A DNA stretch of 64,000 bases, from the IMG/VR virus record IMGVR_UViG_3300032268_000973, positions 1 to 64,000 of that record; one strand, given 5' to 3'. A program made the position numbers and the translations under genes. This DNA comes from a virus. The notes beneath the pieces are model-generated. The model did no database searches, was not told the DNA's origin, and saw only the letters and a program-made list of their open reading frames with translations. Shown piece after piece: positions 19,267 to 39,495 of the stretch. How positions within the stretch are numbered: position 1 is the first letter of the stretch; each line of letters begins with the position of its first letter.

Positions 19267-22200
19267 ATGGCAACACAAGTAAATCAAAAGGTATATGTAT
19301 CACCTGGAGTATACACGTCAGAAACCGACTTATCATTCGTTGCTCAGAGTGTTGGTGTAACAACATTAGGTTTGGTGGGAGAAACAATTAAAGGTCCCGC
19401 TTTCGAGCCTATTTTTATTACCAATTACGACGAGTTTCAAGCATATTTTGGTGGAACTGAACCAACAAAATTTGTTAACACACAAATTCCTAAGTATGAG
19501 GCGGCTTACATCGCAAAATCATATTTACAACAATCGAATCAACTTTTCGTTACAAGAATTTTGGGTCTTTCAGGATATGACGCAGGACCTTCTTGGAGTA
19601 TCAAAACTATTGCTAATGTTGACCCTTTGACTATTGGATTGAATCCTGCTTCAGCAACTACTTGGACTGCATCATTCACAGGAACTTCAACAGGAAATAC
19701 TGTGACATTTGTTGGTGGTGGATTACCATCACCAGTTTTGGCAAATTTCAACACTCAGTATAGATTATCTGATGGAAGTACTTCAAGTTTAGCTTTGGAC
19801 TTCAATAGTAATCTTGACAATATTATGGATACTCCATCATTGTCAGCAAATACAACAGTGATATATGGAGCAATTCCTGAGTCTAATTTTTATGACTTAA
19901 CAGGAGAATATTCAAATGTGATAAATGAATATGGTTGTGATACTGTCAACTTGGCAACAAATGATTTGAGTTCTGATTTAAACGATCCTTGGTATTATGC
20001 TAATTTTGATATTACTTCAGGAAACGCTTACTCAGGATATTCATTCTTCTATTATGTTTCTAGTTTAACATCAGGAAGTTCTTCAACATTCTCAGGTACC
20101 ATATCAGGTAGTGTTTTCACTTACTCAGGAACAGCGTATTCCGAATACAACAATATGGTTGTGGCGACTTTGAGATCAAGAGGTATATCTTTATATACTA
20201 ATAGCGTTGATAGTGACCAACACGGACCAGTTTATGAAGTTAACGCATTATCTGCTTTGACTTTGAATTGTAGTGGACAATATTCAGGTATTACTCAATC
20301 ACCTTATGAAACTTTCTTAATATCAGGTGTTACTAAAGATAATGACAATTTCTCGTTTGAAACTTCAATGTCCGCAGCATCATCAAAATATATTACTAAA
20401 GTTTTAGGTGTCGATAATTTTGGAAAATCAAGAAATGAGGTTCCTGTGTTTGTTGAGGAAGTGTATCCAAGCACTTTGAATTACGCTTATAACCAAGGTT
20501 ATATTAGAGGTTTGAACTGTGATTTAATTTCTTTACCTGGTGCTAGAAGTCAAGACCCATCTTCAATCGCTTACAATGTAACACAATATAAAGCACCTCA
20601 AACACCTTACTTGGTTTCCGAGTTAAGAGGTAATAAAGTTTATAACTTGTTTAGATTCATTTCAATTTCTGACGGTAACTCAGCAAACACTGAAGTTAAA
20701 GTTTCAATTGCTAACTTGTCTTTCAATAATATGACGTTTGACGTGTTAGTTAGAAACTTTTTTGACACGGACGCTAACCCAGTTGTAATTGAAAAATTCA
20801 CAAACTGTAACATGGATCCTCTTTCTAACAACTTTGTTGCTAAAAAGATTGGATCAAGTGATGGTGAGTACGCATTGATTTCAAGATACATAATGGTTGA
20901 AATGGCTGACGAAGCACCAATAGATGCAATACCTTGTGGATTCTATGGATATACCCAGAGAGAATATTCCTCAGTACTTAACCCTTCACCAGTTCCAATT
21001 TTTAAAACTAAATATTATTTCCCTGGTGAGGTAATCTATAACCCTCCTTTCGGTGCAAGCACAAACACAACAGAATCTGCTGGTGACATCGTAAGAAGAA
21101 GTTATTTAGGTTTCTCAAGTCAATTCGGAGTTGATGATGCGTTCTTACAATATAAAGGAACTCAAAATCCAATCAATTGGGTTGTGTCTCCTCTTCCTGT
21201 TCCTGGTGAACAATGGAATTATTTGAGTAAAGGTTTCCATATGGACTCAGGTGCTACAGTTGTAACTATTTCGAATTCTTTCCAAACTAGTGGTCAGACA
21301 GCATTCGAATGTGGTGTTGCTAACTTCTCATCGGATCCTGAAACTCAAGAAAACCCTTACTATTTCATATACTCAAGAAAATATACTATATGTTTTGCTG
21401 GGGGTTTTGATGGATGGGATATCTACAGAGAACATAGAACAAATCAAGATAGATTCCAATTGGGATCTTCAGGTTTCTTAGCGGGAGCATCCGCGTCACA
21501 AAGATATCCAAATGCAACTGGTGATGGTTTGTTCAAGAGAATCGTTGTTCAGAATAACCTTCAAGATTTTGCTAATACTGACTATTACGCATACTTGTTA
21601 GGTATTCTTACATTCGCAAATCCTGAATCTACAAACATCAACGTATTTGCAACTTCAAGTATAGATTATGTAAATAACTCTAACTTGGTTGAGGAAGCAA
21701 TCGATATGGTTCAGTTCTCAAGAGCGGACTCAGTATACATCGCAACAACACCTGACTATCAAATGTTTACCCCTGACGCTACAAACTCATTGGATATAAT
21801 CTATTCTCAAGAAGCTGTAGACAACTTGGATAACACAGGTATTGATTCTAACTATACTGCGACTTACTATCCTTGGATTTTGACAAGAGATACTGTCAAC
21901 AATACACAAATTTACTTACCACCAACTGGTGAAGTTTGTAGAAACTTAGCGTTGACAGATAACATCGCATTCCCTTGGTTCGCTTCAGCGGGTTACACAA
22001 GAGGTCTTGTGAACTCTATCAAAGCGAGAGTGAAACTCACTCAAGAAGATAGAGATACTTTGTATCAAGGAAGAATCAACCCTATCGCAACATTCGCTGA
22101 TGTGGGAACTGTAATTTGGGGTAACAAAACTTTACAAGTTGCGGACACCGCATTAAACAGATTGAACGTAAGAAGATTGTTACTTCAAGCTAGAAAGTTG

Positions 22201-22467
22201 ATTTCAGCAGTAGCAGTAAGATTGTTGTTCGAGCAAAACGACCAAATCGTTAGACAACAATTCTTGGATAGTGTTAACCCTATCTTAGATTCAATTAGAA
22301 GAGATAGAGGTCTTTATGACTTCAGAGTAACAGTTTCTTCTACCCCTGAAGACTTAGATAGAAATACATTAACAGGTAAGATATACTTAAAACCAACGAA
22401 GGCATTAGAATTCATCGATATTGAATTCTTCATTACTCCAACAGGAGCTTCGTTCGAAAATATCTAA
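19267..22467 (+). CDS. Contractile tail sheath protein (gp18-like)
   Basis: VSPGVYTSETDLS N-terminus, PWFASAGYTRG, RINPIATF, IWGNKTLQ and LNVRRLL motifs. Confidence 0.97.
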   Translation: MATQVNQKVYVSPGVYTSETDLSFVAQSVGVTTLGLVGETIKGPAFEPIFITNYDEFQAYFGGTEPTKFVNTQIPKYEAAYIAKSYLQQSNQLFVTRILGLSGYDAGPSWSIKTIANVDPLTIGLNPASATTWTASFTGTSTGNTVTFVGGGLPSPVLANFNTQYRLSDGSTSSLALDFNSNLDNIMDTPSLSANTTVIYGAIPESNFYDLTGEYSNVINEYGCDTVNLATNDLSSDLNDPWYYANFDITSGNAYSGYSFFYYVSSLTSGSSSTFSGTISGSVFTYSGTAYSEYNNMVVATLRSRGISLYTNSVDSDQHGPVYEVNALSALTLNCSGQYSGITQSPYETFLISGVTKDNDNFSFETSMSAASSKYITKVLGVDNFGKSRNEVPVFVEEVYPSTLNYAYNQGYIRGLNCDLISLPGARSQDPSSIAYNVTQYKAPQTPYLVSELRGNKVYNLFRFISISDGNSANTEVKVSIANLSFNNMTFDVLVRNFFDTDANPVVIEKFTNCNMDPLSNNFVAKKIGSSDGEYALISRYIMVEMADEAPIDAIPCGFYGYTQREYSSVLNPSPVPIFKTKYYFPGEVIYNPPFGASTNTTESAGDIVRRSYLGFSSQFGVDDAFLQYKGTQNPINWVVSPLPVPGEQWNYLSKGFHMDSGATVVTISNSFQTSGQTAFECGVANFSSDPETQENPYYFIYSRKYTICFAGGFDGWDIYREHRTNQDRFQLGSSGFLAGASASQRYPNATGDGLFKRIVVQNNLQDFANTDYYAYLLGILTFANPESTNINVFATSSIDYVNNSNLVEEAIDMVQFSRADSVYIATTPDYQMFTPDATNSLDIIYSQEAVDNLDNTGIDSNYTATYYPWILTRDTVNNTQIYLPPTGEVCRNLALTDNIAFPWFASAGYTRGLVNSIKARVKLTQEDRDTLYQGRINPIATFADVGTVIWGNKTLQVADTALNRLNVRRLLLQARKLISAVAVRLLFEQNDQIVRQQFLDSVNPILDSIRRDRGLYDFRVTVSSTPEDLDRNTLTGKIYLKPTKALEFIDIEFFITPTGASFENI

Positions 22468-23428: not shown

Positions 23429-23917
23429 ATGGCTGATTTATTAATGAAAATGCCGATACCTTACGAACCAAAACGACAAAACCGTTTTATCTTAAGGTTT
23501 CCATCTAGTTTGGGAATAAATGAGTGGTTCGTAGAATCAACTGCAAGACCACAGATAACGATTGGTTCCACTGAGATTCAATTTTTAAATACCTCCACAT
23601 TTGTTGCTGGTCGATTTAACTGGAATCCAATAACAGTAACTTTTAGAGATCCAATTGGACCTTCAGCTGCTCAAGCTCTTATGGAGTGGGTTCGTCTACA
23701 CGCTGAATCTGTGACAGGTAGAATGGGTTATGCCGCGGGTTACAAAAAAGATGTCGACTTGGAAATGTTGGACCCAACGGGTGTTGTTGTAGAAAAGTGG
23801 ATATTATATGGAGTTTTCTTAACTGATGTCAACTTTAATCAGTTGTCTTATTCTCAAGATGGTTTAGCAACAATCACTTGTTCTATGAGACCTGACCGTT
23901 GTGTGTTAGTATATTAA
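23429..23917 (+). CDS. Tail tube protein (gp19-like)
   Basis: YEPKRQNRF, WNPITVTFRDPI, ALMEWV and EKWILYGVF motifs. Confidence 0.92.
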   Translation: MADLLMKMPIPYEPKRQNRFILRFPSSLGINEWFVESTARPQITIGSTEIQFLNTSTFVAGRFNWNPITVTFRDPIGPSAAQALMEWVRLHAESVTGRMGYAAGYKKDVDLEMLDPTGVVVEKWILYGVFLTDVNFNQLSYSQDGLATITCSMRPDRCVLVY

Positions 23918-23958: not shown

Positions 23959-23987
23959 TAACCGTAGGGAATAAAACTCTACGGTTA
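23959..23987 (+). promoter_or_regulatory. Hairpin immediately upstream of the tail chaperone start
   Basis: TAACCGTAG(G) / (T)CTACGGTTA stem ending 8 nt before the ATG at 23996. Confidence 0.55.
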
Positions 23988-23995
23988 TTATTTTT

Positions 23996-24739
23996 ATGGA
24001 AAATCAATCAAAAGAATACGGACACTCAAATTTAAGTTTACCACACGATGTGGTTCCTTTACCCAGTCAAGGATTATTTTACAAAAACAAAAAGAAATCT
24101 ATAAAGGTTGGGTATCTTACTGCCTCAGATGAAAATATTTTGATGGCTTCTGATCCTAATATGACACAAAATCTATTGAGGGCAAAAATTTATGAACCAG
24201 ATCTCAAAGTAGACGAGTTGTTGGAGGGTGACATTGAAGCAGTTTTAATATTTTTGAGAAACACGGCATTTGGCCCTGAAATGGAATTGAGCCTTACCGA
24301 TCCTATCACAAAAAAATCTTTCAAAACTTCGGTGATGTTAGACCAATTGGATATTTTGAAAGGACAATCACCAACTGAGGATGGAACGTTCACAACAATA
24401 CTACCAAAATCACAAACAACGGTAAAACTAAAACCAATGAATTATGGTGAGATATTAGAAGTTCAGAGGTTGGGAGATAATTATCCTCAGGGTAGAGCCG
24501 TACCAAGAGTAACTTGGAGACTCAACAAACAACTTGTTGAAATCAATGGAACAACGGACAGAGGTGAAATTTCAAAATTCATTGAACAAATGCCAATAGC
24601 AGATTCCAAATATATTAGACAATTTATGGAAGATAATGAACCTCGATTAGATTTAAAAAGAACAATTATGACCCCATCAGGAGAAAAGCTAACAGTAAAT
24701 GTTGGTTTCGGGGTTGACTTTTTTCGTCCTTTCTTCTGA
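23996..24739 (+). CDS. Tail assembly chaperone / baseplate hub assembly protein (gp26-like)
   Basis: VPLPSQGLFY, YLTASDENIL, LLEGDIEAVLIFLRNTAFG and DSKYIR motifs. Lies between the tube and tape measure genes. Confidence 0.8.
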   Translation: MENQSKEYGHSNLSLPHDVVPLPSQGLFYKNKKKSIKVGYLTASDENILMASDPNMTQNLLRAKIYEPDLKVDELLEGDIEAVLIFLRNTAFGPEMELSLTDPITKKSFKTSVMLDQLDILKGQSPTEDGTFTTILPKSQTTVKLKPMNYGEILEVQRLGDNYPQGRAVPRVTWRLNKQLVEINGTTDRGEISKFIEQMPIADSKYIRQFMEDNEPRLDLKRTIMTPSGEKLTVNVGFGVDFFRPFF

Positions 24740-24878
24740 TTATAGGGTAGGTCAAATCAACGAATTTTATTATTTGACTAAATTATTAAATGTTAGTTAC
24801 AGTGATTTTTTGAAAATGCCTGTTTTTTTCAGAAAGTATTTATTAGATAAATGGGTAAAAGAAAATACAAAGGACTGA
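24714..24878 (+). CDS. Overlapping +1-frame ORF, candidate frameshift extension of the chaperone (G-T-like / gp51-like)
   Basis: Hand translation gives (L)TFFVLSSDYRVGQINEFYYLTKLLNVSYSDFLKMPVFFRKYLLDKWVKENTKD. There is no ATG at its start, and it overlaps the T6 run at 24719-24724. Confidence 0.7.
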   Translation: MTFFVLSSDYRVGQINEFYYLTKLLNVSYSDFLKMPVFFRKYLLDKWVKENTKD

Positions 24879-24894
24879 TAAATCAGTCCTTTTT
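24869..24894 (+). terminator. Intrinsic terminator
   Basis: AAAGGACTGA-TAAA-TCAGTCCTTT stem plus TT, spanning the stop of the +1-frame ORF. Confidence 0.8.
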
Positions 24895-24922: not shown

Positions 24923-26767
24923 ATGCAAGATCCAAACGACAAATCATCGATTGACAAAATCTATCAAGATATTAAAGATCTATTCACGGTAAATTCTGAA
25001 ACCTTTGTTGCGGAGTTCGATAAGATTGCGGTGGCGGGTAACAAAATTCAAACCGTATTTACTCAAGGTAGACAACGAGTTGTAGAATTAAGAAATGCTA
25101 TAGCTGATGCAGCACCTGACGTAATAAGGTTGGGAGGTAATGTTGCGGACACTGGTCGAGTTATCGAAGATGTCGCAGAAGCATCTCGAAGAAATGTTGT
25201 TGCCACTTCAGAAGAAGTTGAAAAATTATTTGCGGCTGAAAAAGTTTTAGGTATAGGAGCTGAGCAATTGGCAAATTCTTTCTTGGATGTCGGTATTGGA
25301 ATTGAAAAGATAGGGGAAAGTTTGGATGAATCCGTAAACTACATCCGAAGTGTTGGAGGGAACGCTAGCCAAGTAATGAAAGATGTTCGACAGAACATGG
25401 AACAAATGAATCGTTACAATTTCGAGGGTGGAGTTGTCGGACTTACAAAGATGGCGGCTCAAGCTTCAATGTTGAGATTTGATATGAATCAGACTTTTCA
25501 ATTGGCTGACGACGTATTAAATCCTGAAAAGGCGGTAACAACTGCCGCGGCATTTCAACGGTTAGGAGTTGCTGTTGGAACTTTGGGTGACCCATTTGCA
25601 CTAATGAACGCTTCAATCAACGATCCTGGAGCGTTACAAGATAGTTTGGTTGATGTTGCAAAACAATTTACATACTTTGATGAAAAAACCAAAACTTTCA
25701 AAATTAACCCACAAGGTGTTTTAACTTTCAAAGAATTACAAAAAGAAACTGGTGTTAGTGCTACTGAAATGAGTAAGTTAGGGCTTGCAGCTGCCGAACT
25801 TGATCAAAGATTGACGGCAGTAAATTCCGCGGGATTAACAATTGTTAACGAAGAGGACAAACAATATTTAGCAAACATCGCTAAAATGGAAGAGGGAACT
25901 TACAAAGTTACCTTGGAAGACGGAACTAAAAAAGAACTTTCTGAATTAACTCAACCAGAATTTGATAAACTTATCAAAGAACAAAAAGAAGGTCCAAAGA
26001 CAGTAGAAGACATTGGTAGATCACAATTGAAGACAACTGATGTGATAATGAATGACTTGAAGGCTATCAAACAAAAAGTTGTTGGAGGTGTAGTTACGGC
26101 ACCACAAGCTACTCAATATACTGAAGGGGCTAGAAGAACGGTTTCAGCATTTACTGGTGCAGCGGCAGACTCTTTTGACACCAGTGATGTGAGAAGAGAA
26201 ACCCAAACGGCAATTGGAGACTTAGAAACTTTAGTTAAAGACTTAGGAAGTGGTAATAAAAATAGTGTAGACGCTATTGCGGATTATCTTGAAAGAGCGG
26301 GAACACAACTTACTAACTTGGATACTAAAGTAAAAAATAGTTTAGAAGAAACATCAAGGAAGGTTCAGGCAAACCTTGGAGACAAAACTGCGGTCGAAAG
26401 ATATACCAAAGACTTACTTGGAACTCTACAGGTGGAACTTGATAAAGGAACTGACGTAAAGAATCAACCAATTTCAAGTTTAGTTACAGGACAACAAACA
26501 CCGATAGGTAACCAAAATCTGTCGACATCAGTTTCTAATACTGCAACGGCCCAAAGTTCAAAAATGGATATTGGGGGGACATTAAATCACAATATAGTAA
26601 TAAAATTTGAAAACCCACCACCTAATATGACGCAAGCTCAATTAGATATGATTGCTCAATCTTTATCAAAGACGTTAAATAGTCCACAATACTTAGCATC
26701 GATGCAAAATAATAACAAACAGTTTAACCCTTTTGGTAATAATTCGCCAGCATATTATAATCCATAA
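24923..26767 (+). CDS. Tape measure protein
   Basis: 614 aa Ala/Gln/Glu-rich helical protein directly after the tube and chaperone genes. Confidence 0.8.
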   Translation: MQDPNDKSSIDKIYQDIKDLFTVNSETFVAEFDKIAVAGNKIQTVFTQGRQRVVELRNAIADAAPDVIRLGGNVADTGRVIEDVAEASRRNVVATSEEVEKLFAAEKVLGIGAEQLANSFLDVGIGIEKIGESLDESVNYIRSVGGNASQVMKDVRQNMEQMNRYNFEGGVVGLTKMAAQASMLRFDMNQTFQLADDVLNPEKAVTTAAAFQRLGVAVGTLGDPFALMNASINDPGALQDSLVDVAKQFTYFDEKTKTFKINPQGVLTFKELQKETGVSATEMSKLGLAAAELDQRLTAVNSAGLTIVNEEDKQYLANIAKMEEGTYKVTLEDGTKKELSELTQPEFDKLIKEQKEGPKTVEDIGRSQLKTTDVIMNDLKAIKQKVVGGVVTAPQATQYTEGARRTVSAFTGAAADSFDTSDVRRETQTAIGDLETLVKDLGSGNKNSVDAIADYLERAGTQLTNLDTKVKNSLEETSRKVQANLGDKTAVERYTKDLLGTLQVELDKGTDVKNQPISSLVTGQQTPIGNQNLSTSVSNTATAQSSKMDIGGTLNHNIVIKFENPPPNMTQAQLDMIAQSLSKTLNSPQYLASMQNNNKQFNPFGNNSPAYYNP

Positions 26768-26805: not shown

Positions 26806-29800
26806 ATGGCAAGTCCTTTAGATTTTGTAAACTCAGATGGTTTTAGAAAAAAACTTATCACAAGGAATTTAACCCCTTATGCTAAGGCTCCTAATAGACC
26901 AACACAACCAATCAATACGGAGTATATTCAATCAGATTCATCAGTTCAAGATAGTCCTGATCAATTGATTGACCAACCTTCATTTGCCAACAAGTTGTAT
27001 CCACTTAACCAATATGGTAATGAGGGTGGTTATGAGCAAGCTCCAGATCCTGGTGCCTTATTGAATACGAAATCTAACGAGGGAGAGTATGGTTATCAAG
27101 ATGCTAATATTGTTGGTCAATCAATACCCGAATCTCAAAAATGGAAACCTTTAAATGTTTTTTCTAATGGAAGTCAACTAAATTTGGATAGTGCTGAATT
27201 TTTTGATTCCTTACAAAGACCAACCGCAACAAACAAATCAAACAACCAACCTTACCCAACAACATTTGTATATTCAACATATTCACCAGTTTCAATCCTA
27301 TTATCACCAAATCCAGGAGGAAGTAATGGGTTAGTAAGTCAAGACTCATTTATCGCTCGATTAGGAGCACAAACTTTACGAAAAGAATTTGAAGAACGAA
27401 TTGCGGCTCAAATAAGACAAGATACTTTGGGTAGAGCTAACATTTTGAATGTTAGTAGTGGAACTGACGTTGTGAACATACTCACAGGAGTTGTTCCTAT
27501 CATAGAACCAAACTTTACAATCACAGTTACCGCTAACCCTATATTAGCCGCAACAAATTTTGCCCTCAGATTAGCGGGTAGTATATTACCAACTTCACCA
27601 ATTCCAGGATCATACTTTGACCCAAACATCAATCCTGGTCCACAAACCACTATTCAACAACTTACAAATGCTTTCAGACGTAGTGCTGTTGGGAAATTTG
27701 TTAATAGATTGATGGGAGGAGGAGAGACAGGTTCCCAAATTATGTTCAATAATATGGGGGCAGGTCAGAGGTCTCGATTGTTTAAGAATATAGATTTCAA
27801 CAAATACAAACCTAACTATCCAAGAACATTCTTAGATAGGGTTGGAGGAGTATTAACGGGAACTCAATCTGAAAATAGTAATTTTTATGTTGGTAGTATT
27901 ACTTCGAATCCATCACAAGTGTTCTCACCTCCTGGTGATGTTCCTGTTAATCAATATGGTATAGAACAACAGTCTCCAGTTTATGGACCATCAGAGCTTG
28001 CACAATTATACGAGGGACCAAGTCAATCTGTTAGATTGGGTGCGAATGGACCAACATATAGTAATGGTGGAGGTATCGAAGGTGGATTTACATGGGTTTC
28101 TCCAAAATATAAAGATAATGCTGGTAAGAAAGTTGGTATTGGAGGTGAAATTACATCACAGGACGAAGACTTTAGACCATCGTCTTATGTTAATACAGAG
28201 TCGGTTGGTATCCCTTTCCGTGAAGGTTCCATCTTGGATGATACTCAAAGACTCATTGACAGTCAGCCACAAGGTGGAAAACGATTACAACACGTTGGAA
28301 ATGCAATTGATCAGGTAAGTAAAGTATTCAATGATGGATATAAAGAACTAACAAAAGGATCAAGAGTTTATAGATATGAAGGGGAAATAGGACAAGAGGT
28401 TGGAACTGAATATTGTAGAGTTTTCGCAAAAGACATTCCTTATTTACAATACAATGATCTTCAAAAGGTTGATGGAATAACAACTGAAGGAAGACGATTC
28501 TCTTATTCGGTATTGGATAAGACTTACAACTTGAATATTGCTCCAAACAAACAAGAGGGTGGACAAGATTCGACAAACTTGATTGGAACAGATAACAATG
28601 CTTACGCCAAAAAATATATGTTCTCTTTAGAGAATTTGGCTTGGAGAACGTCTAAAACACCAGGGTTTTCTACCGCGGATCTTCCTGTTTGTGAACGTGG
28701 ACCAAATGGTGGTAGAGTTATGTGGTTCCCACCATATGGGTTAACTTTTAGTGAATCAGTTCAAGCAAACTGGAATAGTTCTGATTTCTTAGGTAGACCA
28801 GAACCAATCTACACTTATAAAAATACTTCTCGTGGAGGAACACTGACTTGGAAAATTGTTGTTGATCATCCTTCAGTTCTTAATGTAATTGTAAATAAAG
28901 TTTTGGCAAATGAAACTAACAGGACTAGAGTTGATAGTATCCTTGAATCTTTCTTTGCTGGATGTCGGAAATATGACATCTATGAATTGGCAAAAAAATA
29001 CGTAACTGTAAACCCAAATGATCTTTTCGAGTTACAACAAGCAATTTCTTCAAAAGAAATGACTCGTGAACAAATTGAATATACTCGAAAAACAATCGAA
29101 ACTGGATATAATTCTCCAAATGGATCCGATCAAGGGTCATCCCAATCTGGAGGTGGAGGTGACAGTAATACTCTTTTCCAAAGATACCTACAATTAGGGT
29201 TTTATTACGGAAATGACTATCCTAAACCAAATACTGTAATTAATTATACAACGGAATATCCGAGATATTCTGCAGAACTTAATGAAGAATATTCGAAACA
29301 ACCAAATGCTCAAGAAACTGAGACTTTTTTCAAAACTGTTGTCACACCAAATTATGAGGCAATAAATGATTTTGCAATAGAATTGGGGAAACAATTAGAA
29401 TCCAATGCAAATGGAAATGTTACCATTTATATTAGTTCAAGTTGTTCGGCGCCAGCAAGTGTGGCATACAACGACGCGTTGTCCAAAAGAAGGGTTACAG
29501 CCATGATTAAGTATTTTGCGGAAAATACTGCGACAAGTAAATATGTCGCAAATTCAAGACTAATTGTTAAAGAAGACCCAAGGGCACAACCTGGTGTGGG
29601 TGCTCAAGGTGAACGCGCCAGATCAACACCAATGAAAAGTAGTAAAACCGAAAAACCATATCCTCCAGAAGTTTTTAGTCCGAACGGAGATACATTCAAT
29701 TGTTCTGACTCAGTTGCCACTGCAGGTGGTGACACTCCTGTTGGTGCAAAAGAAGTTTTTACAGTTGGGGCAATGGCTTGTCGAAGATCATATATATCTG

Positions 29801-31872
29801 AAATTATTTCTAGTTTGAACAATCCAGAACCTGAACCAGTACCGAATCGAATTGATGTTTTAGTTGGGAACGTTGTTACCGAAACTTTTACAACTGAGGA
29901 AGTTGTTGATGAATGGAAGCCACGTGACAACATAACCAAAAGAGTTGTAAGGGCTCTATTATCGGAGTGTGATTATTTTGAAACTATAAAAGCTGAGACA
30001 CCGATGGTTTTTGACAATCTGAAGGACAAGTTGAAGTTTTTCCATCCAACCTTTCATTCAATTACTCCTGAAGGATTGAATTCAAGATTGACGTTCTTAC
30101 AACAGTGTATGAGACCTGGTGATACAATTCCAACTATCAAACAAGTAACACCAACAAGTAAACCTCAGCTTGAATATAACAATGCTGTGAACACTTCTTT
30201 TGGAGCTCCACCAGTTTTGGTTATGAGAGTCGGAGATTTTTACAACACTAAAATTATTCCGACTTCATTACAGATTCAATATGAGGGGCTCGACCTCAAC
30301 CCAGAAGGAATTGGAGTTCAACCGATGATTGCTAATATTACATTAGGGTTTAACTTTGTTGGTGGAAGTGGACTTAAAGAATCTATCGACAAGTTACAGA
30401 ATGCTCTAACATTCAATTACTATGCAAACACTGAAATCTATGATGACAGAGCAGATGCTAGTGATATCGAATCATCAAGAATTCTTGATCAAATATTCTT
30501 GGCGGGACAAACTCCACCACCAATTCCTGGTGTAAACAATGCAACCACAAATGCTGGACAAGACAATAATAGTTCTATTGGTAGAATAGTTAGTTCCTCT
30601 ACATCAACCGAGGGTGTGACAACAGGCGTAATAAGTTATGGTGAGTTTATGGATCGAGTTGTAAACGAAACTCAGACCTATTTTACAAATGTAGTCAATA
30701 AAACCAAAGAAACGGTTAACCAATATAATAACGCCGTAAGACAACAATGGTTGTTGGAAAGAAATTACACTAACGGGAATCTTAATGTGGATACTTCAAA
30801 CGTAGATATATTTGGAAAACCAAATAATGTTGAACAAAGATTCAATGACATTTTTGATACGTTGGACAAAAACATTAAAGATGGTAACGAAGGGTTTATT
30901 CAGTATATTTCAGAACCATCGAAGAATTTTTCTCCTCAACTTATTAGAGCAATTAAGGAAAACTATTATAATTTTGTTTCAAGGAAAAAATCAACTTTCC
31001 AAAACGGAGTGTCTACTATAACCCAAAGTTTAGTGAACCAAGAACAAAGTTACATTCAAACTTTGGCAAGATTAAATATTATTACATTTGATCGAATTCC
31101 TAGTACAGGAACCGATGGATTCCAAGCTAAGAACGGACCTGTGACTATTTATACCACTTTAGGAACCGAAGATGTTCATCCAACATCAACAGCATCGGAC
31201 ACTCTTCTCGAATTAGTGGATGACGCTAAAAAAATCTCACAAGATATTATTGCGTTTAACGCGGTAATTCAAAGTCCAAGTAAATTCACTTATGCTGGAA
31301 CAGGAACTGAATATCAAGGAACTTTAGTTTTTGAGTTGGCAAATGGTAAATCTAAAGCAGTTACAACTGAACAAGTTTTCTTACCTTTTAGTGTGAACCC
31401 ATTATTTGCTAATGGAAATTATTCTTTTAGAAGAGTCTATATGATTCTTTCTGATGATATTGTTGATGACAAAAAGTATGAAACTTTCAAACAACAACTA
31501 ATCGGGAATGTATTGAATAACAAAACCTTATTAGGTAATGGGTCAATCAATTTGGAAAAAATATTTGACGACTATTGGATCTTGAAAGCTAAACCAGTTT
31601 TCTTGGAGGAAAACAATATTACAAAATCGTTTATTGATAATTTAGAAAAAACCTCTTTGAAAAATTTCTTGGTATATACACCATTTGACAAGAAAACTAG
31701 AGACTTCACTTTCACAACTGAAGACTCAGGTGATCAATCAAAGAAACCTTCACAAGAGAATATGATTAAAGGATTAGCGGATACTACTAACCAAAATACA
31801 AATATAAACACTTGGAATGATCTCGGTGACAATGCCACGGGAGCGTTCATATCTAAAGCAAAACTGAACTGA
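26806..31872 (+). CDS. Giant baseplate / tube-initiator protein (gp48/gp54-like segments) with an internal OmpA-like domain
   Basis: FPPYGLTFSESVQANWNSSDFLGRPEPIYTYKNTSR and PPVLVMRVGDFY segments. SSCSAPASVAYNDALSKRRV resembles OmpA_C. Confidence 0.65.
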   Translation: MASPLDFVNSDGFRKKLITRNLTPYAKAPNRPTQPINTEYIQSDSSVQDSPDQLIDQPSFANKLYPLNQYGNEGGYEQAPDPGALLNTKSNEGEYGYQDANIVGQSIPESQKWKPLNVFSNGSQLNLDSAEFFDSLQRPTATNKSNNQPYPTTFVYSTYSPVSILLSPNPGGSNGLVSQDSFIARLGAQTLRKEFEERIAAQIRQDTLGRANILNVSSGTDVVNILTGVVPIIEPNFTITVTANPILAATNFALRLAGSILPTSPIPGSYFDPNINPGPQTTIQQLTNAFRRSAVGKFVNRLMGGGETGSQIMFNNMGAGQRSRLFKNIDFNKYKPNYPRTFLDRVGGVLTGTQSENSNFYVGSITSNPSQVFSPPGDVPVNQYGIEQQSPVYGPSELAQLYEGPSQSVRLGANGPTYSNGGGIEGGFTWVSPKYKDNAGKKVGIGGEITSQDEDFRPSSYVNTESVGIPFREGSILDDTQRLIDSQPQGGKRLQHVGNAIDQVSKVFNDGYKELTKGSRVYRYEGEIGQEVGTEYCRVFAKDIPYLQYNDLQKVDGITTEGRRFSYSVLDKTYNLNIAPNKQEGGQDSTNLIGTDNNAYAKKYMFSLENLAWRTSKTPGFSTADLPVCERGPNGGRVMWFPPYGLTFSESVQANWNSSDFLGRPEPIYTYKNTSRGGTLTWKIVVDHPSVLNVIVNKVLANETNRTRVDSILESFFAGCRKYDIYELAKKYVTVNPNDLFELQQAISSKEMTREQIEYTRKTIETGYNSPNGSDQGSSQSGGGGDSNTLFQRYLQLGFYYGNDYPKPNTVINYTTEYPRYSAELNEEYSKQPNAQETETFFKTVVTPNYEAINDFAIELGKQLESNANGNVTIYISSSCSAPASVAYNDALSKRRVTAMIKYFAENTATSKYVANSRLIVKEDPRAQPGVGAQGERARSTPMKSSKTEKPYPPEVFSPNGDTFNCSDSVATAGGDTPVGAKEVFTVGAMACRRSYISEIISSLNNPEPEPVPNRIDVLVGNVVTETFTTEEVVDEWKPRDNITKRVVRALLSECDYFETIKAETPMVFDNLKDKLKFFHPTFHSITPEGLNSRLTFLQQCMRPGDTIPTIKQVTPTSKPQLEYNNAVNTSFGAPPVLVMRVGDFYNTKIIPTSLQIQYEGLDLNPEGIGVQPMIANITLGFNFVGGSGLKESIDKLQNALTFNYYANTEIYDDRADASDIESSRILDQIFLAGQTPPPIPGVNNATTNAGQDNNSSIGRIVSSSTSTEGVTTGVISYGEFMDRVVNETQTYFTNVVNKTKETVNQYNNAVRQQWLLERNYTNGNLNVDTSNVDIFGKPNNVEQRFNDIFDTLDKNIKDGNEGFIQYISEPSKNFSPQLIRAIKENYYNFVSRKKSTFQNGVSTITQSLVNQEQSYIQTLARLNIITFDRIPSTGTDGFQAKNGPVTIYTTLGTEDVHPTSTASDTLLELVDDAKKISQDIIAFNAVIQSPSKFTYAGTGTEYQGTLVFELANGKSKAVTTEQVFLPFSVNPLFANGNYSFRRVYMILSDDIVDDKKYETFKQQLIGNVLNNKTLLGNGSINLEKIFDDYWILKAKPVFLEENNITKSFIDNLEKTSLKNFLVYTPFDKKTRDFTFTTEDSGDQSKKPSQENMIKGLADTTNQNTNINTWNDLGDNATGAFISKAKLN

Positions 31873-32195
31873 TGGCGTATCAATATTATAATAGATATAG
31901 TGATTTTCTCATCAATGGTGAGCAAACCGTTGTGCCTTATGTTTCGTTACCACAAAAACCCACAGATAAGGCATATATCTATAAAGTTGCGAAAAGTAGA
32001 TTGGATAAGGTCTCACAAGAATTTTATAACTCTCCCGTGTTTAATTGGTTAATTCTTCAAGCCAATCCTCAATTCGGCGGATTAGAAAACAATATTTACG
32101 ATGGTGCTGTATTGATTATTCCTTTTCCCCTCCTACCATCTTTACAAGATTACAAAGCGGCATTAGAAAACCATTTTTATTATTATGGCAGGTAA
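31872..32195 (+). CDS. LysM-like baseplate protein (gp53 / P2 gpX-like)
   Basis: YIYKVAKSRLDKVSQEFYNSPVFNWLILQANP...GAVLIIP. Confidence 0.8.
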   Translation: MAYQYYNRYSDFLINGEQTVVPYVSLPQKPTDKAYIYKVAKSRLDKVSQEFYNSPVFNWLILQANPQFGGLENNIYDGAVLIIPFPLLPSLQDYKAALENHFYYYGR

Positions 32196-35100
32196 TATTC
32201 AAGCGGATAATAGTGGAAACATTCTTGTTGAATTCGATTACAATAACATTATTGTGGTTGATCCTAACAAGACAATTGATGATTTTGGTAACATCAGTGA
32301 AAGATTAGTTGATCACGAAAAACTTGTGATGTATGCTAATTTGGAGGCTGAGTTATTACCAAGAACAAAACTTGCGGTTGGTGGATCACCTGAAGATAGA
32401 ATTCGAACGATATCAGTTGCGAAAATGAATTTTCTTAAACCTACAAAGAATGCATTTTTGGGAACAGGATATTATGACGAACTTACGGGAGAAAATTCAA
32501 CTCAGTTCAAAGGGACTAACCAACAACTCGAAAAAGGACAAGACCCAAAAAATGGAGACAAACCTTATATTCAAAATACTGTTGCAAATGAAAAAGATAT
32601 TATTGATAATGGTCTCTTAGGGATAACTTCAATCAATATACAAACCGACAGTAGTTTTATACCAACCGTAGAAATTCAACTTGAAGATATACAAGGTCGT
32701 GGATTGTTTGAATTGGGAAATAACTCTCCTTATTCAGCATTCTTTAATTTACCTTACCCACCCTTTTATTTGACATTAAAAGGGTATTATGGGCAAGCCA
32801 TCAGATATCAACTTAACTTACAAACATTTCACGCGTCCTTTAATGGATTTAGCGGAAACTATTTAGTTAGACTTCAGTTCAAAGGTTACAAATTTAATAT
32901 CCTTAATGAGGTCTCAATGGGCCACTTATTGGCGGCTCCTCACATGTATAGTCAAAGATTTGACGTGACTCAAACGGTTGAAGGGCCCCAACAACCAAAT
33001 GCGGCCGCCGAATCACAAGCGAGTACTCAAGCAGAACGAGGGGCTAATAATCTTGGATCAAGCGAGGCTGTGGTTACGCAACTTGTTGCTGAGAAGGGTT
33101 ATCAAAAAATTGTTGAAGTTTATAGTGAATACAAAGCGAAAGGATTGATTGCACCTAATTTTCCCGAATTAACTTTGGTTCAATTGATGAACAAGCTTGA
33201 CCAGTTTGAACAAACTATTGTCGAATCATTCGAAAAAACTGAGGTCGAATCTTTAACTAATATTCGAAATTACAAATCAGTTTTAACTCAATACTTTAAT
33301 AATGTGAGGGGTGCGAATAATTCTTGGTTTGCAATTTACTTAGATCCCAATCCAATCATTCTTCTTAATAATCAAGAAAAGATTTATGTATTTAAAAATT
33401 TATCTCGTGAGGTAAAAACCACGGCAATAACTTTATTACAAGAAAATATTTCCAAATACAACAAATCTTTATCTGAAAACCCTACTATGGGTTCAACCCC
33501 GAACCCTATAAAGTATGATACTATTTCGGTCACACCTCCTCCTTACGATTCAATAGACTGGAGAGCAACTACAAGAATTAGAACAGGAATACCAAATCCT
33601 ACTGAAGCGGATATACTTGCGTTTCAGTCTTCACTTTCATCACTTTGGGCACTAACGGAATTCCAAAAAACAGAAAGCCCGAATCAAATTGAACCTGTCC
33701 CTCAAAATTTTTTCACATTTGAGGGTGAAAATAGATTTGATAAAAATATTGCTCTGTTGGAAACACAAGCAAACAAAAAACTTTCAGAATTCGAAACTGA
33801 AATTTCTGCAAAATTATTAAGAAAGATTGAAGACACAGATGTGGGGTTAGGTTTCAGACCTACTGTTAGGAACATGATTGCAGTTATTATGGCGTCAGCT
33901 GAAGGGTTTATACGACTTATGGATGATGTTCATACTAATGCATGGAATGTGAAATATGATCCAGTTCGTCAATTAGCAATTTTAGACAATCAAACATCGG
34001 CATTAGGTAGTGAAACTATCGATTATGTCTCAAGAGACCCATCCGTAACATACAACAATAATGAATTAGATAATAATGCAAGAAATTCCCAAATTCCTGT
34101 ATATCCTTGGCCACAATTCTTTGTGGAAGATCCTGATGATAAGAAGGGAAGATTTCAGTTAAAATATCTTGCAGATCCAAGTGTTGTAGATATTACTCAA
34201 GGTTATTTGTATGACAAGTGGCCTGAAGTGGAATTTGTTGAAGAATATATGAAAGGGTTGACACAGAAGTTTCAAAACCCTAACGCTAGTCCTCCATTAG
34301 ATAATGAGAGAGATACAAATATAATCAACATCAATGCGATAGAATTTCCGTCTACAGGTCTTGCGTATACCAACAAAGAAGAAATCAAGTTTTTCTATGA
34401 AATTTGGGAACGACAATTTCTGACGACTCACTATTCAGGATTGATAAGAGCAAACTCAAATCAAATAGATGAACTTTTTAGATTAAATACTGAAACAGAA
34501 TTTAATAATATTCAAAAGAAATTGGGGATAAGTTCACCTTATTTGACTTTGAAGTTAAAGAATTATGATTTGAATTCATCGAACTATCCAAATTTCTTAA
34601 ATAATATATCTAACTCAGGAACTGGCCGAGCATACCAAGAATATATTAGGGATTTCTTTGTTACTCCTTACATCAAAGGAATAACAGAAAATTCTTTTTC
34701 AATTTTGAACACGTTAGAAATTGGAAAAATACCTCAATTTGCTGCAAAATCTGAAGCATTAAAATTATTGATTGAGAATGCGTCTAACGCACCTTTGATT
34801 GTTGACACGTTGCCATATACAAATCAAACTTGGTGTTCAACAAATTTAAGTCAAAGTAGCACATCATTATCAAATGAAGTGTATAATACCAAAAAGTCTC
34901 TTAGAATATTCGAACCAAGAAAGATAATTTCTAATTTTACTGACGTATATGATTATAGTTTTAACCGACCTGTAACTAATTTCTCATACATATTAGGACA
35001 GAATCCTACATCTGAAGTTATTGGTGGGTTGAATTTTTTCTATATATCAAGATTCCCAAATAAATTTATTCCTACAGAGGGATATGTAAATGGAACTTAT

Positions 35101-38100
35101 CCAACCAACACTTTGGCACCAACCGCATTTGGTTCTAACATATTCAGGACAACAACTTCAATGTTGAATACACCTTATTTTGTTAATGCAATTCAAAATG
35201 GTGTTTATAATTCAAGGGCTCAAGGGAACCTATATCCATACGTTCAAGCGGCTTATTTATTCTTAAACTCCCTTCCATTGGCAACATTAAGGGAAAAATA
35301 CAAATCTATATCTAATAGTATTTCAACTGATTTGGATTACATTTCTGCCACGCTGAAAAAATTCGGAGCAATACACAAAATCCCTTATCCTTGGATTTTG
35401 AAATATGGATCTATTTGGCATAGATACAAAAAATACAAAGAATCGAATGTAGATATTCTTAGCACCGCTTGGGATAACTTTAACTATAGTGGAAATTATT
35501 ATCCACCTACAAGTTCGGTAACACAAACATACTCCTTCAAATATTCAAACGTTGATAAAAACATTACGTTGCAAAATGAGAATGAACAAATTCAAATGCA
35601 ACTTGGATTCTATCCTAAAGTAATCAATGACTTTAACGTTTTTTATAATGGATATGATTTATTCCAAAACTATACAGATCAAGAAATTCAGAACAGTGTT
35701 AATGCTGGTATGAAATTATATAATTTCAGTGATTCCAATATCATAGGAGCTATTCAACAAGAGAAAAATCTATCTTTGATAACTTGGTCGGTATTGTTAC
35801 CGAATTTACAGCCTGATTCTGCAATAGAATGTAATCCAAAAGACAACACGACTGGGAATGAATATTTTGTTGTTCCTTCATTTGGAACATTTTTCAATCA
35901 AACGACTAATGCATGTATTTCCAACACAAATAACACAGTCGTAGATTTGACAAATAATCCAAGTGTATATAATGGATCAGTGAGAACTTTGTGGTCAGCA
36001 CCAAATTTTGGATATTTTGATTCAAATCAAATTAAATTCCCTGAGCCTGATTCATATTTGAATTTTATCAATACCGATGGAGATCAGTCACCATTTCATT
36101 TCTTAACTGAAAACAACTATACAAAAATAGAAGAAGTGTTTTCAGTGTTTGATACAGAAATATTGGATGCTTTCGAACTTGAGTTTTTAAATTTCTGTAA
36201 GCCTATGACGGACGCTTCTAAAGGATCGGATGTTATCAGTTTTGGAATATCGCCAGTAAATGTGAATGCAAATTTCAAAAACTTTCAATCTCTATTTAAA
36301 AGTTTGATGTCAGTCCCTGTAAAGAGTGGTACTGAAACTGAAGATGAGTATTTCAAAAACACAATTAACAATCAATTTGGATTGTTCCAAGTTGGTATAA
36401 AAGCCTTCATGGAGTTTGATGTAATATTCAGATATGGTAATCCTTCAAATTATAAAAGAAGAATTTTTGCGTCATACCTATCTCATAACTCAACCGAAGT
36501 TGTTGTTGATCCAATAACTTTTGAACCATATGTTACAAATTCATTACCTAGTTTTGGAGGTATAAGTTTAGTTCAATCACAAGAAACATATCCTGAAGCT
36601 TGGACGGCTTTGGAAACCCAAGTTGGTTTTTCAACAATACCAAATGTCGCATATACTTCTGATGGGTCTTATATTACAGACTTTTTTATTGATAATAATA
36701 TTAAGTTTACATCAGAAAATGTTGTTTTGTTAGCACCAATCATTAAAATGTATGCGACACAAAAATTAAATAATCCAAGTATCAACGCTGCTCAGTTTCA
36801 AGATCAGCTCAGTTTATATTTGGAAAGAGAAGATGATTTACAAAACGTTTTCTTAAATGGGGTTCTGAGAAAATTAAATGCAGATTTGGATGATCAAGTA
36901 CAATTACCTGAGAGGGCGGTTAAAAGTGTTATTACAGGTGAACAAAGTAAGGTTGAAAACTATGAAGTATTCAAAGCCTTAAATGATAAGTGGATTGCTG
37001 GTGGAGATTATAAAACCAAAACCCTATTCGAAGATATGTTATTTATGGATAGGGCTTCGAGAAACATTGGAGATACCGTCCTAATTGACATATTCGATCT
37101 AAAAAACATGTTCAATGAAAATTCATTGAATCAAGCAATGAGTGTGTTCACATTCATAAGTGGAATTTTAATTAAAAACAATTTCACGGTGATGCCATTA
37201 CCAGCATATGTGAATTTTTACAATGTTCAGGATGTGGATGGAGTATCAATTCCTAAACCTGAGGGATCACTACAATTCGCAAATAGTTTGTGGGGAACAT
37301 TCTTAGATGTTGACTATAGAAACTCTGGGCCTAAGTTGGTATGTTTTTATGTGGGGAAACCTTCACAATATTTGAACTTACCGAAACAAAACTCAAGATT
37401 CCGAGATGATGCATTTGAGTTAAGGAGATCTTCTGATAATCCACTTTTGGAAAATCAACAAGGTAAAAAAGATTGGGCATTATCAAACAAATGTGTTGGA
37501 TTCAACGTCGATGTTGGAATTAGAAATCAAAATATATTTTATTCATTTACCGTGTCTCAAGATAACGGTGTTGCAACATCTGAATCGATCAACACACAGT
37601 TGAACATGGTTGACCAAGCATCAGGTAGGGCGGTTGCAACTCAAAACAACAGTTTATACAATCTATACAAACAGAGAAGTTATAAAGCTGGTGTTGTGAG
37701 TTTAGGAAACGCATTACTACAACCAACAATGTATTTCAATCTCAGACACGTTCCGATGTTCAATGGACCGTATATGATTACTGATGTTTCTCACTCAATC
37801 CAACCTGGTTCATTCCAAACAACATTCAACGGAATTCGTCAAGGAATTTATGATTTACCTGCAATTGATAGTTTACTACAAAGTATCAATCAAAATTTGA
37901 TCACAAGAATTGAGGAACTTCTTAAAATTAATAAAGATCAGATTGTAGTATCAGGAACAACAAACAACATCAAATCAGATAGTATTGTTCAAAAGGCCGA
38001 CAATACTTTAGATACTACAAATTCATGTAGTTCTAAAATTACTGACGATGTATATCTGAATGCTAGCCCTGGTTATGTCGCCGAAACTGGTAAATTGACT

Positions 38101-39495
38101 AAATTTACACCTACTGAGTTAGCGGATACATTGAAAAGACTTTTGCCAAGTGACCCTATATTACAAACATTTATTTATTGTATCTCTTATATCCGAACAT
38201 TCCAAAGTAATTCAAATACCGACGTTGGTAACTTCAACGGTTGGAATAATAACTTAGCCACTTTAGGATTAGACACAAATTGGTCAGGACAAGTATCGTT
38301 ATTATCTAAAACTTACAGTTGTGTTAATGTCAAAACAACAGACTCCAAAAATACTTCTTTACCTATCTCCCACTTTAGTTCTTTGGATGATTATGTAAGA
38401 TTTATGGCGGCACGATTGAGGCCAAGAGTTAGTCAAATTTTAGAGCCAAATATGGGATTGGCAAAATATTATGTTTGTTTTTGGCCACAAAAAAATATTG
38501 ATGTTACTTATTACGACGAAAATAAATCGAGATTCAAACAAACAGAAGACACATTTTTCAAAGCATTGTCATCGGCGGTAAGGGTTGGTTTAATTAACCC
38601 TGATGGTTCGGTTGACTTGAAAGAAACAATCAAGAATGATAATAAGAACCCAACTGTAACACCAACACCTTCATTGAGTCAAACTTGTCCTCCTCCATCC
38701 TTAAAATCTTTCGCTCCTGAGGATGGATACACAGGAACAATTATACAACTTAATGGAGAAAATTTTGAATCAATAAAGTCTATAGAAGTGTCGGGTCAAA
38801 AAGTGGATATGAAAACCTTAACGGTATTTAACAAAAATACCTTAAGATTTACTTTACCTTCAATTACAATTCCATTAAACCAAGAAGTTGTTGTTGGAAA
38901 AATTTCGATCACTACTGAATTCGGTACGTCAGAAAGTTCATTGAATTTCACATTCAATCCAGCATTGCAAAATAAAACAACTTCTTCTCCAGGAGCATAC
39001 CAAAGTAAAGAACAAATACAACCTCCAACAATTGAACAACAAGAAGAGTTAGGGCAGAATAGAAATCCTCAGGATATAGGAAGTGTAATTTTAGAAAGTG
39101 AGTCTACGTCTATTTTCACAAACTTTTTCAATAACCCTATAACCAACACACTAAAAGTTTATTTGAAACCTGAATCAACTCCTGGAATAATTTCAGAAAC
39201 AGTCCTTATGGTAGTTTCGATATTCAATAGGAAACTAAGTAATAATAAATACGAAATAACATTAGACCGAACAGAAACTTTAGCATTGGATTCATTTGTA
39301 AAAGATAATGTTTTTTATATTACATATAGTGATGTTGCGGATATTTTGATTAACAATCCTCAAGGATCCTTTAAAACTAATTTTATAAAAGGTGATCAAT
39401 TGATAGAAATAAACTTTGAAATACAAGCAATTCCTTTGGATAAGATTAAATTCCCATCACCTGTTACAAGATCTTTCTTCTTCAGATTTAAATAA
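32185..39495 (+). CDS. Giant baseplate hub protein (gp27/VgrG-like) with C-terminal accessory domains
   Basis: GITSINIQ...VEIQLEDIQG near the N-terminus and GPYMITDVSHSIQPGSFQTTFNGIR hub motif. An IPT/TIG-like segment (SFAPEDGYTGTIIQLNGENF) lies near the C-terminus. Confidence 0.65.
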   Translation: MAGNIQADNSGNILVEFDYNNIIVVDPNKTIDDFGNISERLVDHEKLVMYANLEAELLPRTKLAVGGSPEDRIRTISVAKMNFLKPTKNAFLGTGYYDELTGENSTQFKGTNQQLEKGQDPKNGDKPYIQNTVANEKDIIDNGLLGITSINIQTDSSFIPTVEIQLEDIQGRGLFELGNNSPYSAFFNLPYPPFYLTLKGYYGQAIRYQLNLQTFHASFNGFSGNYLVRLQFKGYKFNILNEVSMGHLLAAPHMYSQRFDVTQTVEGPQQPNAAAESQASTQAERGANNLGSSEAVVTQLVAEKGYQKIVEVYSEYKAKGLIAPNFPELTLVQLMNKLDQFEQTIVESFEKTEVESLTNIRNYKSVLTQYFNNVRGANNSWFAIYLDPNPIILLNNQEKIYVFKNLSREVKTTAITLLQENISKYNKSLSENPTMGSTPNPIKYDTISVTPPPYDSIDWRATTRIRTGIPNPTEADILAFQSSLSSLWALTEFQKTESPNQIEPVPQNFFTFEGENRFDKNIALLETQANKKLSEFETEISAKLLRKIEDTDVGLGFRPTVRNMIAVIMASAEGFIRLMDDVHTNAWNVKYDPVRQLAILDNQTSALGSETIDYVSRDPSVTYNNNELDNNARNSQIPVYPWPQFFVEDPDDKKGRFQLKYLADPSVVDITQGYLYDKWPEVEFVEEYMKGLTQKFQNPNASPPLDNERDTNIININAIEFPSTGLAYTNKEEIKFFYEIWERQFLTTHYSGLIRANSNQIDELFRLNTETEFNNIQKKLGISSPYLTLKLKNYDLNSSNYPNFLNNISNSGTGRAYQEYIRDFFVTPYIKGITENSFSILNTLEIGKIPQFAAKSEALKLLIENASNAPLIVDTLPYTNQTWCSTNLSQSSTSLSNEVYNTKKSLRIFEPRKIISNFTDVYDYSFNRPVTNFSYILGQNPTSEVIGGLNFFYISRFPNKFIPTEGYVNGTYPTNTLAPTAFGSNIFRTTTSMLNTPYFVNAIQNGVYNSRAQGNLYPYVQAAYLFLNSLPLATLREKYKSISNSISTDLDYISATLKKFGAIHKIPYPWILKYGSIWHRYKKYKESNVDILSTAWDNFNYSGNYYPPTSSVTQTYSFKYSNVDKNITLQNENEQIQMQLGFYPKVINDFNVFYNGYDLFQNYTDQEIQNSVNAGMKLYNFSDSNIIGAIQQEKNLSLITWSVLLPNLQPDSAIECNPKDNTTGNEYFVVPSFGTFFNQTTNACISNTNNTVVDLTNNPSVYNGSVRTLWSAPNFGYFDSNQIKFPEPDSYLNFINTDGDQSPFHFLTENNYTKIEEVFSVFDTEILDAFELEFLNFCKPMTDASKGSDVISFGISPVNVNANFKNFQSLFKSLMSVPVKSGTETEDEYFKNTINNQFGLFQVGIKAFMEFDVIFRYGNPSNYKRRIFASYLSHNSTEVVVDPITFEPYVTNSLPSFGGISLVQSQETYPEAWTALETQVGFSTIPNVAYTSDGSYITDFFIDNNIKFTSENVVLLAPIIKMYATQKLNNPSINAAQFQDQLSLYLEREDDLQNVFLNGVLRKLNADLDDQVQLPERAVKSVITGEQSKVENYEVFKALNDKWIAGGDYKTKTLFEDMLFMDRASRNIGDTVLIDIFDLKNMFNENSLNQAMSVFTFISGILIKNNFTVMPLPAYVNFYNVQDVDGVSIPKPEGSLQFANSLWGTFLDVDYRNSGPKLVCFYVGKPSQYLNLPKQNSRFRDDAFELRRSSDNPLLENQQGKKDWALSNKCVGFNVDVGIRNQNIFYSFTVSQDNGVATSESINTQLNMVDQASGRAVATQNNSLYNLYKQRSYKAGVVSLGNALLQPTMYFNLRHVPMFNGPYMITDVSHSIQPGSFQTTFNGIRQGIYDLPAIDSLLQSINQNLITRIEELLKINKDQIVVSGTTNNIKSDSIVQKADNTLDTTNSCSSKITDDVYLNASPGYVAETGKLTKFTPTELADTLKRLLPSDPILQTFIYCISYIRTFQSNSNTDVGNFNGWNNNLATLGLDTNWSGQVSLLSKTYSCVNVKTTDSKNTSLPISHFSSLDDYVRFMAARLRPRVSQILEPNMGLAKYYVCFWPQKNIDVTYYDENKSRFKQTEDTFFKALSSAVRVGLINPDGSVDLKETIKNDNKNPTVTPTPSLSQTCPPPSLKSFAPEDGYTGTIIQLNGENFESIKSIEVSGQKVDMKTLTVFNKNTLRFTLPSITIPLNQEVVVGKISITTEFGTSESSLNFTFNPALQNKTTSSPGAYQSKEQIQPPTIEQQEELGQNRNPQDIGSVILESESTSIFTNFFNNPITNTLKVYLKPESTPGIISETVLMVVSIFNRKLSNNKYEITLDRTETLALDSFVKDNVFYITYSDVADILINNPQGSFKTNFIKGDQLIEINFEIQAIPLDKIKFPSPVTRSFFFRFK

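Follow-up and report, generated by a model that had tools for sequence, protein, structure and literature searches.

A probable programmed +1 ribosomal frameshift in the gp26-like tail chaperone gene of an uncultured giant phage

In the genome of an uncultured giant phage, a gene resembling T4 gene 26 closes with the codons GAC TTT TTT CGT CCT TTC TTC TGA, and a second reading frame runs through this end and continues well past the stop. The question raised by this locus is whether, and by which route, the second frame is joined to the first. The DNA analysed, referred to here as the window, is a stretch of 64,000 nucleotides with a GC content of 34%, and represents the first 64 kb of a 183-kb IMG/VR record which is approximately 61% complete. 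The gp26-like gene lies at 23996-24739 on the + strand, as do all genes and sites described below unless stated otherwise, and its frame 0 encodes a product of 247 aa, with the stop at 24737-24739. The proposed slip site (24719-24725) consists of six T's (24719-24724), which form codons F242 and F243, followed by a C; the next codon is a rare CGT (24725-24727). The +1 frame stays open between 24699 and a TGA at 24876-24878, and from 24726 to 24878 it provides an extension of 50 codons plus the stop, so that a slip at codon F243, in which the second TTT and the next C are taken in one step, would yield a long product of 293 aa. Frame -1 closes three codons past the frame-0 stop.

An initial annotation of this DNA had already proposed a frameshift at this place. 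The terminal codons that it quoted for the chaperone gene and the 50-codon continuation in the +1 frame were both found as described, and the terminator by which it saw the unit closed corresponds to a two-way terminator-like hairpin (24869-24892, hairpin prediction, assigned to neither strand) that overlaps the +1 stop. It was mistaken, however, in stating that no ATG stands at the start of the +1 frame: it had overlooked an ATG in frame at 24699-24701, placed immediately after a TAA and opening an ORF of 59 aa (24699-24878). The TTG at 24714, which it took for the sole alternative start, does exist, but it is accompanied by this ATG, and relatives have TGG or TCG in its place. The answer that we consider likely is that this gene codes for a gp26-like tail/hub assembly chaperone and undergoes programmed +1 ribosomal frameshifting close to its 3' end.

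The genes around the site are arranged in the order sheath, a 276-aa gene of no assigned role, tube, the gp26-like gene and ORFs of 614, 1688 and 2436 aa. The tail sheath gene (19267-22467, 1066 aa) matches phrog_23 (E 1e-54), PF17482 and PF04984; the match to sheath families is confined to the C-terminal ~220 aa, and some 840 N-terminal residues are unexplained. The tail tube gene (23429-23917, 162 aa) is T4 gp19-like and matches phrog_4542 (E 2e-25). In the gap between the tube and the chaperone genes there is a strong terminator-like hairpin of 11 pairs (23959-23987), which may lower the expression of the chaperone relative to that of the tube; an annotated terminator occupies the equivalent position in Bacillus phage SP-15. 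The presumed tape measure gene (24923-26767, 614 aa) is assigned by position and size only. Thus, from the layout of tube, chaperone and tape measure claimed in the initial annotation, the upstream tube gene stands on its phrog_4542 match and the tape measure on place and size. No Pfam family, PHROG family or phage tblastn match was obtained for the 614-aa product, which gave a single weak atlas lead, to PF10145; its length is close to that of T4 gp29 (590 aa), and in cultured relatives the gene at the equivalent place is annotated as tape measure. Downstream of it, 26806-39495 is taken up by two very large ORFs, of 1688 and 2436 aa, the shorter of which has no match in Pfam or PHROG. Only one out of 33 gene starts in the window carries a Shine-Dalgarno-like motif and the leaders are A/T-rich, which suggests that the host is not reliant on such sites. 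A tRNA search found none in the window and a single tRNA-Met in the 183-kb record, at its ~61% completeness.

With respect to its family, the 247-aa protein matches PF12322 (T4_baseplate) with 34.3 bits over residues 31-228, the gathering cut-off being 24.5, and phrog_150 ('baseplate hub') among the PHROGs. None of the Pfam tail assembly chaperone families matched it, PF12322 being the sole hit at E values up to 10, and no second PF12322 gene was found in the 183-kb record, as far as its ~61% completeness reaches. T4 gp26 and gp51 score 215.6 and 177.5 bits, respectively, against the same model. T4 gp26 (208 aa) and gp51 (249 aa) are hub assembly chaperones, with gp51 absent from the virion, and their roles are still vague (PMC3004832). 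In terms of architecture, gp26 consists of the PF12322 domain alone and ends a few residues past the same Phe-Phe motif that ends the short form here, while gp51 consists of the domain plus a 48-aa tail. At least one annotator holds that gp51 acts on the tape measure, since the gp51 homologue of Acinetobacter phage Berthold (MN709128.1) is annotated 'tape measure protein assembly chaperone'.

The fold of the short form was modelled with AlphaFold2 from alignment A4 (pLDDT 89.9); a mixed alignment, A3, was set aside because MAFFT had misplaced its extension-only rows. When the model was compared with 48,161 PDB chains, only three reached Z >= 5: 2ob9, the HK97 chaperone (Z 5.6, rmsd 3.5, 85 residues aligned), 3fgx (Z 5.6, 89 aligned) and 3klu (Z 5.5, 81 aligned). 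All three are called tail assembly chaperones (PMC9603447), and the same three were among the matches of the modelled natural long form P0221 (pLDDT 90.7), in which the extension is predicted to form three helices. A Foldseek search against the PDB gave no match at E <= 0.001. As the Z values are modest, we take the nearness of the predicted short-form fold to solved tail assembly chaperones as support and not as proof. The designation of the gene as a tail chaperone therefore agrees with its position and its modelled fold, although by sequence it belongs to PF12322, together with T4 gp26/gp51, and not to a known G/GT family.

A search of 5.8 billion proteins with the 247-aa protein returned 4424 homologues, and 119 of the best 120 of them are also 247 aa long (identity 76-99%), which rules out a homopolymer sequencing error. 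The break does fall in a homopolymer, where a faulty assembly, a misread run or a decaying gene might be suspected. However, hundreds of independent assemblies share this frame offset and this stop position, and both frames are constrained in the overlap (entropy over 44 unique sequences). Assembly error and gene decay are thereby effectively refuted.

Conservation was then followed in 80 close IMG/VR loci with 76-100% identity, and entropy by codon position was calculated over 44 unique sequences. The motif GAC-T6-CG and the frame-0 stop five codons further on are invariant in all 80 loci, and every one of them keeps the +1 extension. The initial annotation had proposed that homologous loci be aligned for the T run and the frame offset; both are retained in these 80 and in about 160 more distant loci. 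Upstream of 24698, the variable position is the third of frame 0 (0.96 bits versus 0.27 and 0.19 at the other two). Between ATG 24699 and the run, frame-0 position 3, which is the second position of the +1 frame, is still the variable one (0.74 bits), and 24716-24739 is near-invariant at all three codon positions. From 24740 to 24874, it is the third position of the +1 frame that varies (0.88 bits versus 0.39 and 0.23). From the run onward, 50-53 codons are conserved as protein in 26 distinct versions. On these alignments, the combination of T run, stop position and +1 extension is far beyond what chance would give.

These data bear on whether the 59-aa ORF (24699-24878) could be a separate small gene translated from its own ATG, with no frameshift involved. 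Its ATG follows a stop and is kept in 80/80 close relatives through the sequence AAT GTN, and GenBank records of related phages enter the downstream piece as a separate small protein. Ribosome-binding-site context does not speak against ATG 24699 either, because the phage uses no Shine-Dalgarno sites (1/33 starts). However, in 8 of the 80 close relatives this ATG is immediately followed by a TAG, and the six +1 codons between it and the T run change non-conservatively, with no sign of +1 coding constraint. Since the constraint on the +1 frame appears only from the T run onward, ATG 24699 is not the start. The switch of frame in the entropy profile, the ATG-TAG cases and the conserved extension together indicate that +1 coding begins at the run and that neither ATG 24699 nor TTG 24714 is a conserved start.

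Next, DNA beyond the close relatives was examined in GenBank phage records, in the FFWP subfamily and in a third survey. Locus searches with single proteins (P0141, P0230) gave almost nothing, and it was alignment queries that gave the loci. A HMMER scan of 1.84 billion cluster representatives counted 1278 family members, and among the matches listed nearly all full-length members end no more than about six residues past the conserved Phe-Phe motif. The layout is common to approximately 240 related phage loci, about 230 with the extension in the +1 frame and eight in which the T run is longer and the extension lies in frame -1. The extension in the +1 frame was found in six GenBank records, namely Microcystis phage Mel-JY01, Bacillus phages SP-15 and HSE3, Flavobacterium phage immuto, Streptococcus phage GXN1 and an uncultured 484-kb phage, and the IMG/VR contig L086 shows the same +1 layout. 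The extensions in the GenBank records start at TTT TTT T, TTT TTT C, TTC TTT C, TTT CTT T or TTT CTA, and the gene order is sheath, tube, gp26-like gene, small ORF and tape measure. A slip is annotated in none of the six.

In the FFWP subfamily, an invariant 12-nt sequence, T7-GGCCT, and a conserved +1 extension of 65-97 codons are present in 77/80 loci, and frame -1 closes after four codons. The accessible +1 stretch has no ATG, GTG or TTG in 21 of the 68 unique loci of this subfamily. The third survey comprised 78 readable loci, 70 of them +1 and 8 of them -1; the shifted frame is devoid of a start codon in 8/58 +1 loci and in 6/6 -1 loci. The eight -1 loci have a run of eight to nine T's and a homologous extension. 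Since this sister subfamily uses the -1 frame on eight to nine T's, the direction of the shift differs within one family. Near locus position 1850, six of the loci (L199, L206, L220, L226, L231 and L233) read GAT, eight to nine T's and CC, with a -1 extension of 63-70 codons and without a start codon in that frame.

The T run is also where RNA polymerase might slip, in which case some mRNAs would be one U shorter or two U's longer, and ordinary translation of these would enter the extension. Most lineages do have such runs, with six, seven or eight to nine T's. Nevertheless, six T's are short for efficient slippage, and lineages with only three T's keep the out-of-frame extension, so that a long homopolymer is not common to all members. 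Moreover, when the polymerase slips it usually inserts a single extra base; this would bring translation into the -1 frame, which closes after three codons here. We regard polymerase slippage as highly improbable.

Some members of the family are long without any shift. In P0217, P0221 and P0266 (301-324 aa), reading continues in frame past the Phe-Phe motif, and in contig L085 (1581-3466) a 278-aa short form and a 347-aa long paralogue with an in-frame extension lie adjacent to each other with no frameshift, which parallels T4 genes 26 and 51. A profile built from 34 out-of-frame extensions (A2) aligns to residues 249-313 of P0221, the stretch that immediately follows the PF12322 domain (hhalign, probability 97%, E 6e-11). 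Judged by this match, the extension is homologous to the C-terminal in-frame tail of the natural long forms. The T4 gp51 tail matches the extension profile weakly and at its very end, with E 0.011 for T4 alone and 1e-3 for an alignment of gp51 from seven phages. The presence of the extension within the same polypeptide in some lineages, together with the lack of a start codon in that frame in many distant relatives, argues further against a separate small gene, which we hold to be very unlikely.

The natural long forms also bear on the direction of the shift, for which the initial annotation had left +1 and -2 side by side. At the same site, the tRNA-Phe on the second UUU could move back two bases, and the product would then contain one extra Phe and measure 294 aa. 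The six T's permit perfect re-pairing two bases back, and the chaperone gene of phage Mu is reported to use a -2 shift. However, relatives with only three T's (TTC TTT CGT; TTT CTA) cannot re-pair at -2 and yet keep the +1 extension. In addition, the +1 product aligns without gaps across the junction with four natural long forms, whereas the -2 product needs an insertion of one residue. A net shift of +1 is thus, in the loci compared, a better fit to the relatives than -2, and a slip of two bases back appears quite unlikely. Accordingly, the programmed shift into the +1 frame claimed in the initial annotation is supported, its -2 variant less so, and the comparative data favour 247 and 293 aa within the pair of products of 247 and about 293-294 aa that it had given.

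Regarding the exact slip codon, the efficiency of the +1 shift and the function of the two forms, we infer the following. Most ribosomes would stay in frame 0, terminate at 24737-24739 and release the 247-aa short form. A fraction would pause with peptidyl-tRNA-Phe on UUU (24722-24724) and the rare CGU in the A site; the tRNA-Phe would then re-pair one base forward on UUC and reading would resume at GUC (24726). In this way, 50 residues would be added to give the 293-aa long form, whose tail would be a short helical module, and the two forms would act together on the tape measure protein and the hub, as do lambda G/GT and T4 gp26 with gp51. In the window, CGT is used 3.0 times and CGC 0.2 times per 1000 codons, while AGA makes up 67% of the Arg codons, and the site has CGT in some close relatives and CGC in others. 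A rare CGT or CGC in the A site is thus consistent with ribosomes pausing while UUU occupies the P site and then slipping onto UUC. A point against this is that GTC, the first +1 codon, is itself uncommon in the window. In the listed ORFs of the window, TTTTTTC and TTTCGY each occur in frame one further time. Sister clades carry UGG, CAC or CUA as the A-site codon. As some relatives have TTC TTT C, TTT CTT T or TTT CTA, no single slip codon fits all of them, and therefore the site may sit one codon apart between lineages.

A stimulatory structure was sought in the RNA downstream of the site and was not found: RNAalifold on 16 sequences (L073 having been entered with a wrong offset) gave -1.9 kcal/mol without covariation, and a single-sequence fold gave a z of 0.44. 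The GGGG at 24710-24713 was considered as a Shine-Dalgarno-like stimulator and dropped, given that Shine-Dalgarno sites are not used in this phage and that distant clades do not have the GGGG. Nor was an unusual tRNA found in the 183-kb record, as far as its ~61% completeness reaches. As a separate observation, the third position of the GGG glycine codon in this stretch upstream of the run never varies in the 44 unique relatives, while neighbouring third positions do, and GGG accounts for only 12% of the Gly codons in the window.

Textbooks treat frameshifted tail chaperones as typical of long-tailed phages, and T4 with its many relatives has been seen as an exception. A literature search, conducted without most subscription journals, did not turn up any account of frameshifting in genes of the gp26/gp51 type. 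In comparison with the known chaperone frameshift, what is new here is the different protein family, the forward direction and the change of direction within one family. We lean slightly towards a broader view, namely that PF12322 could be the T4-lineage counterpart of lambda G/GT, a chaperone of tape measure and hub that needs a short and a long form. The long form would be obtained in four interchangeable ways, by +1 frameshift as in this window, by -1 frameshift, by a paralogous gene (T4, L085) or by in-frame fusion, and the Phe-Phe motif would double as a slip site in either direction. If this is true, it would explain why T4 seemed to be without a near-universal chaperone frameshift and would give gp26 and gp51 a concrete role. 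One family acquiring the same C-terminal module by +1 shift, -1 shift, duplication or fusion would tie T4-type tails to the G/GT principle, and would offer a set of natural cases in which to study how the direction of slipping on a U run is determined. Furthermore, hundreds of database records show the gene as two entries, a 'baseplate hub subunit' and a small ORF without explanation, and could be re-annotated.

The conserved frameshift of tail assembly chaperone genes, with gpG/gpGT of lambda, was reportedly described by Xu, Hendrix and Duda in Mol Cell in 2004 (cited in PMC9024508). As with gpG/gpGT, the gene studied here is preceded by the tube gene and followed by the presumed tape measure gene, and from one start it would give a short and a C-terminally extended product. 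Likewise, only a few codons separate the putative slip site from the stop, the second frame lacks a conserved start and is itself conserved at the protein level, and the modelled fold appears related to those of solved chaperones. Unlike in lambda, the family is PF12322, the protein is roughly double gpG in size, a search for downstream structure found none and the shift would be +1 on UUU-UUC, the site not having the form of the canonical -1 heptamer X XXY YYZ.

Bacterial prfB (RF2) resembles the proposed mechanism in that a peptidyl-tRNA slips +1 onto an overlapping, near-cognate codon during slow filling of the A site. Here, in contrast to prfB, the A site would hold CGT and no stop codon, and there is no Shine-Dalgarno-like stimulator; none is expected, because the phage does not use such sites. 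Influenza A PA-X is made by a +1 frameshift at UCC UUU CGU C. By analogy, the core is alike, with a P-site UUU able to re-pair on UUC and then a rare CGU in the A site, although PA-X involves a eukaryotic ribosome and an unrelated gene, and the resemblance would be one of mechanism only.

Finally, T4 differs from the present case in that gp26 and gp51 come from separate genes without any frameshift: in the +1 frame, gene 26 is closed after 10 codons, it does not adjoin the tube gene, and only a weak resemblance (E 1e-3) links the gp51 tail to the extension. At the same time, T4 gp26 and gp51 belong to the same Pfam family as the protein described here, gp26 ends near the same Phe-Phe motif, and the ~48-aa tail of gp51 recalls the proposed long form of this phage.
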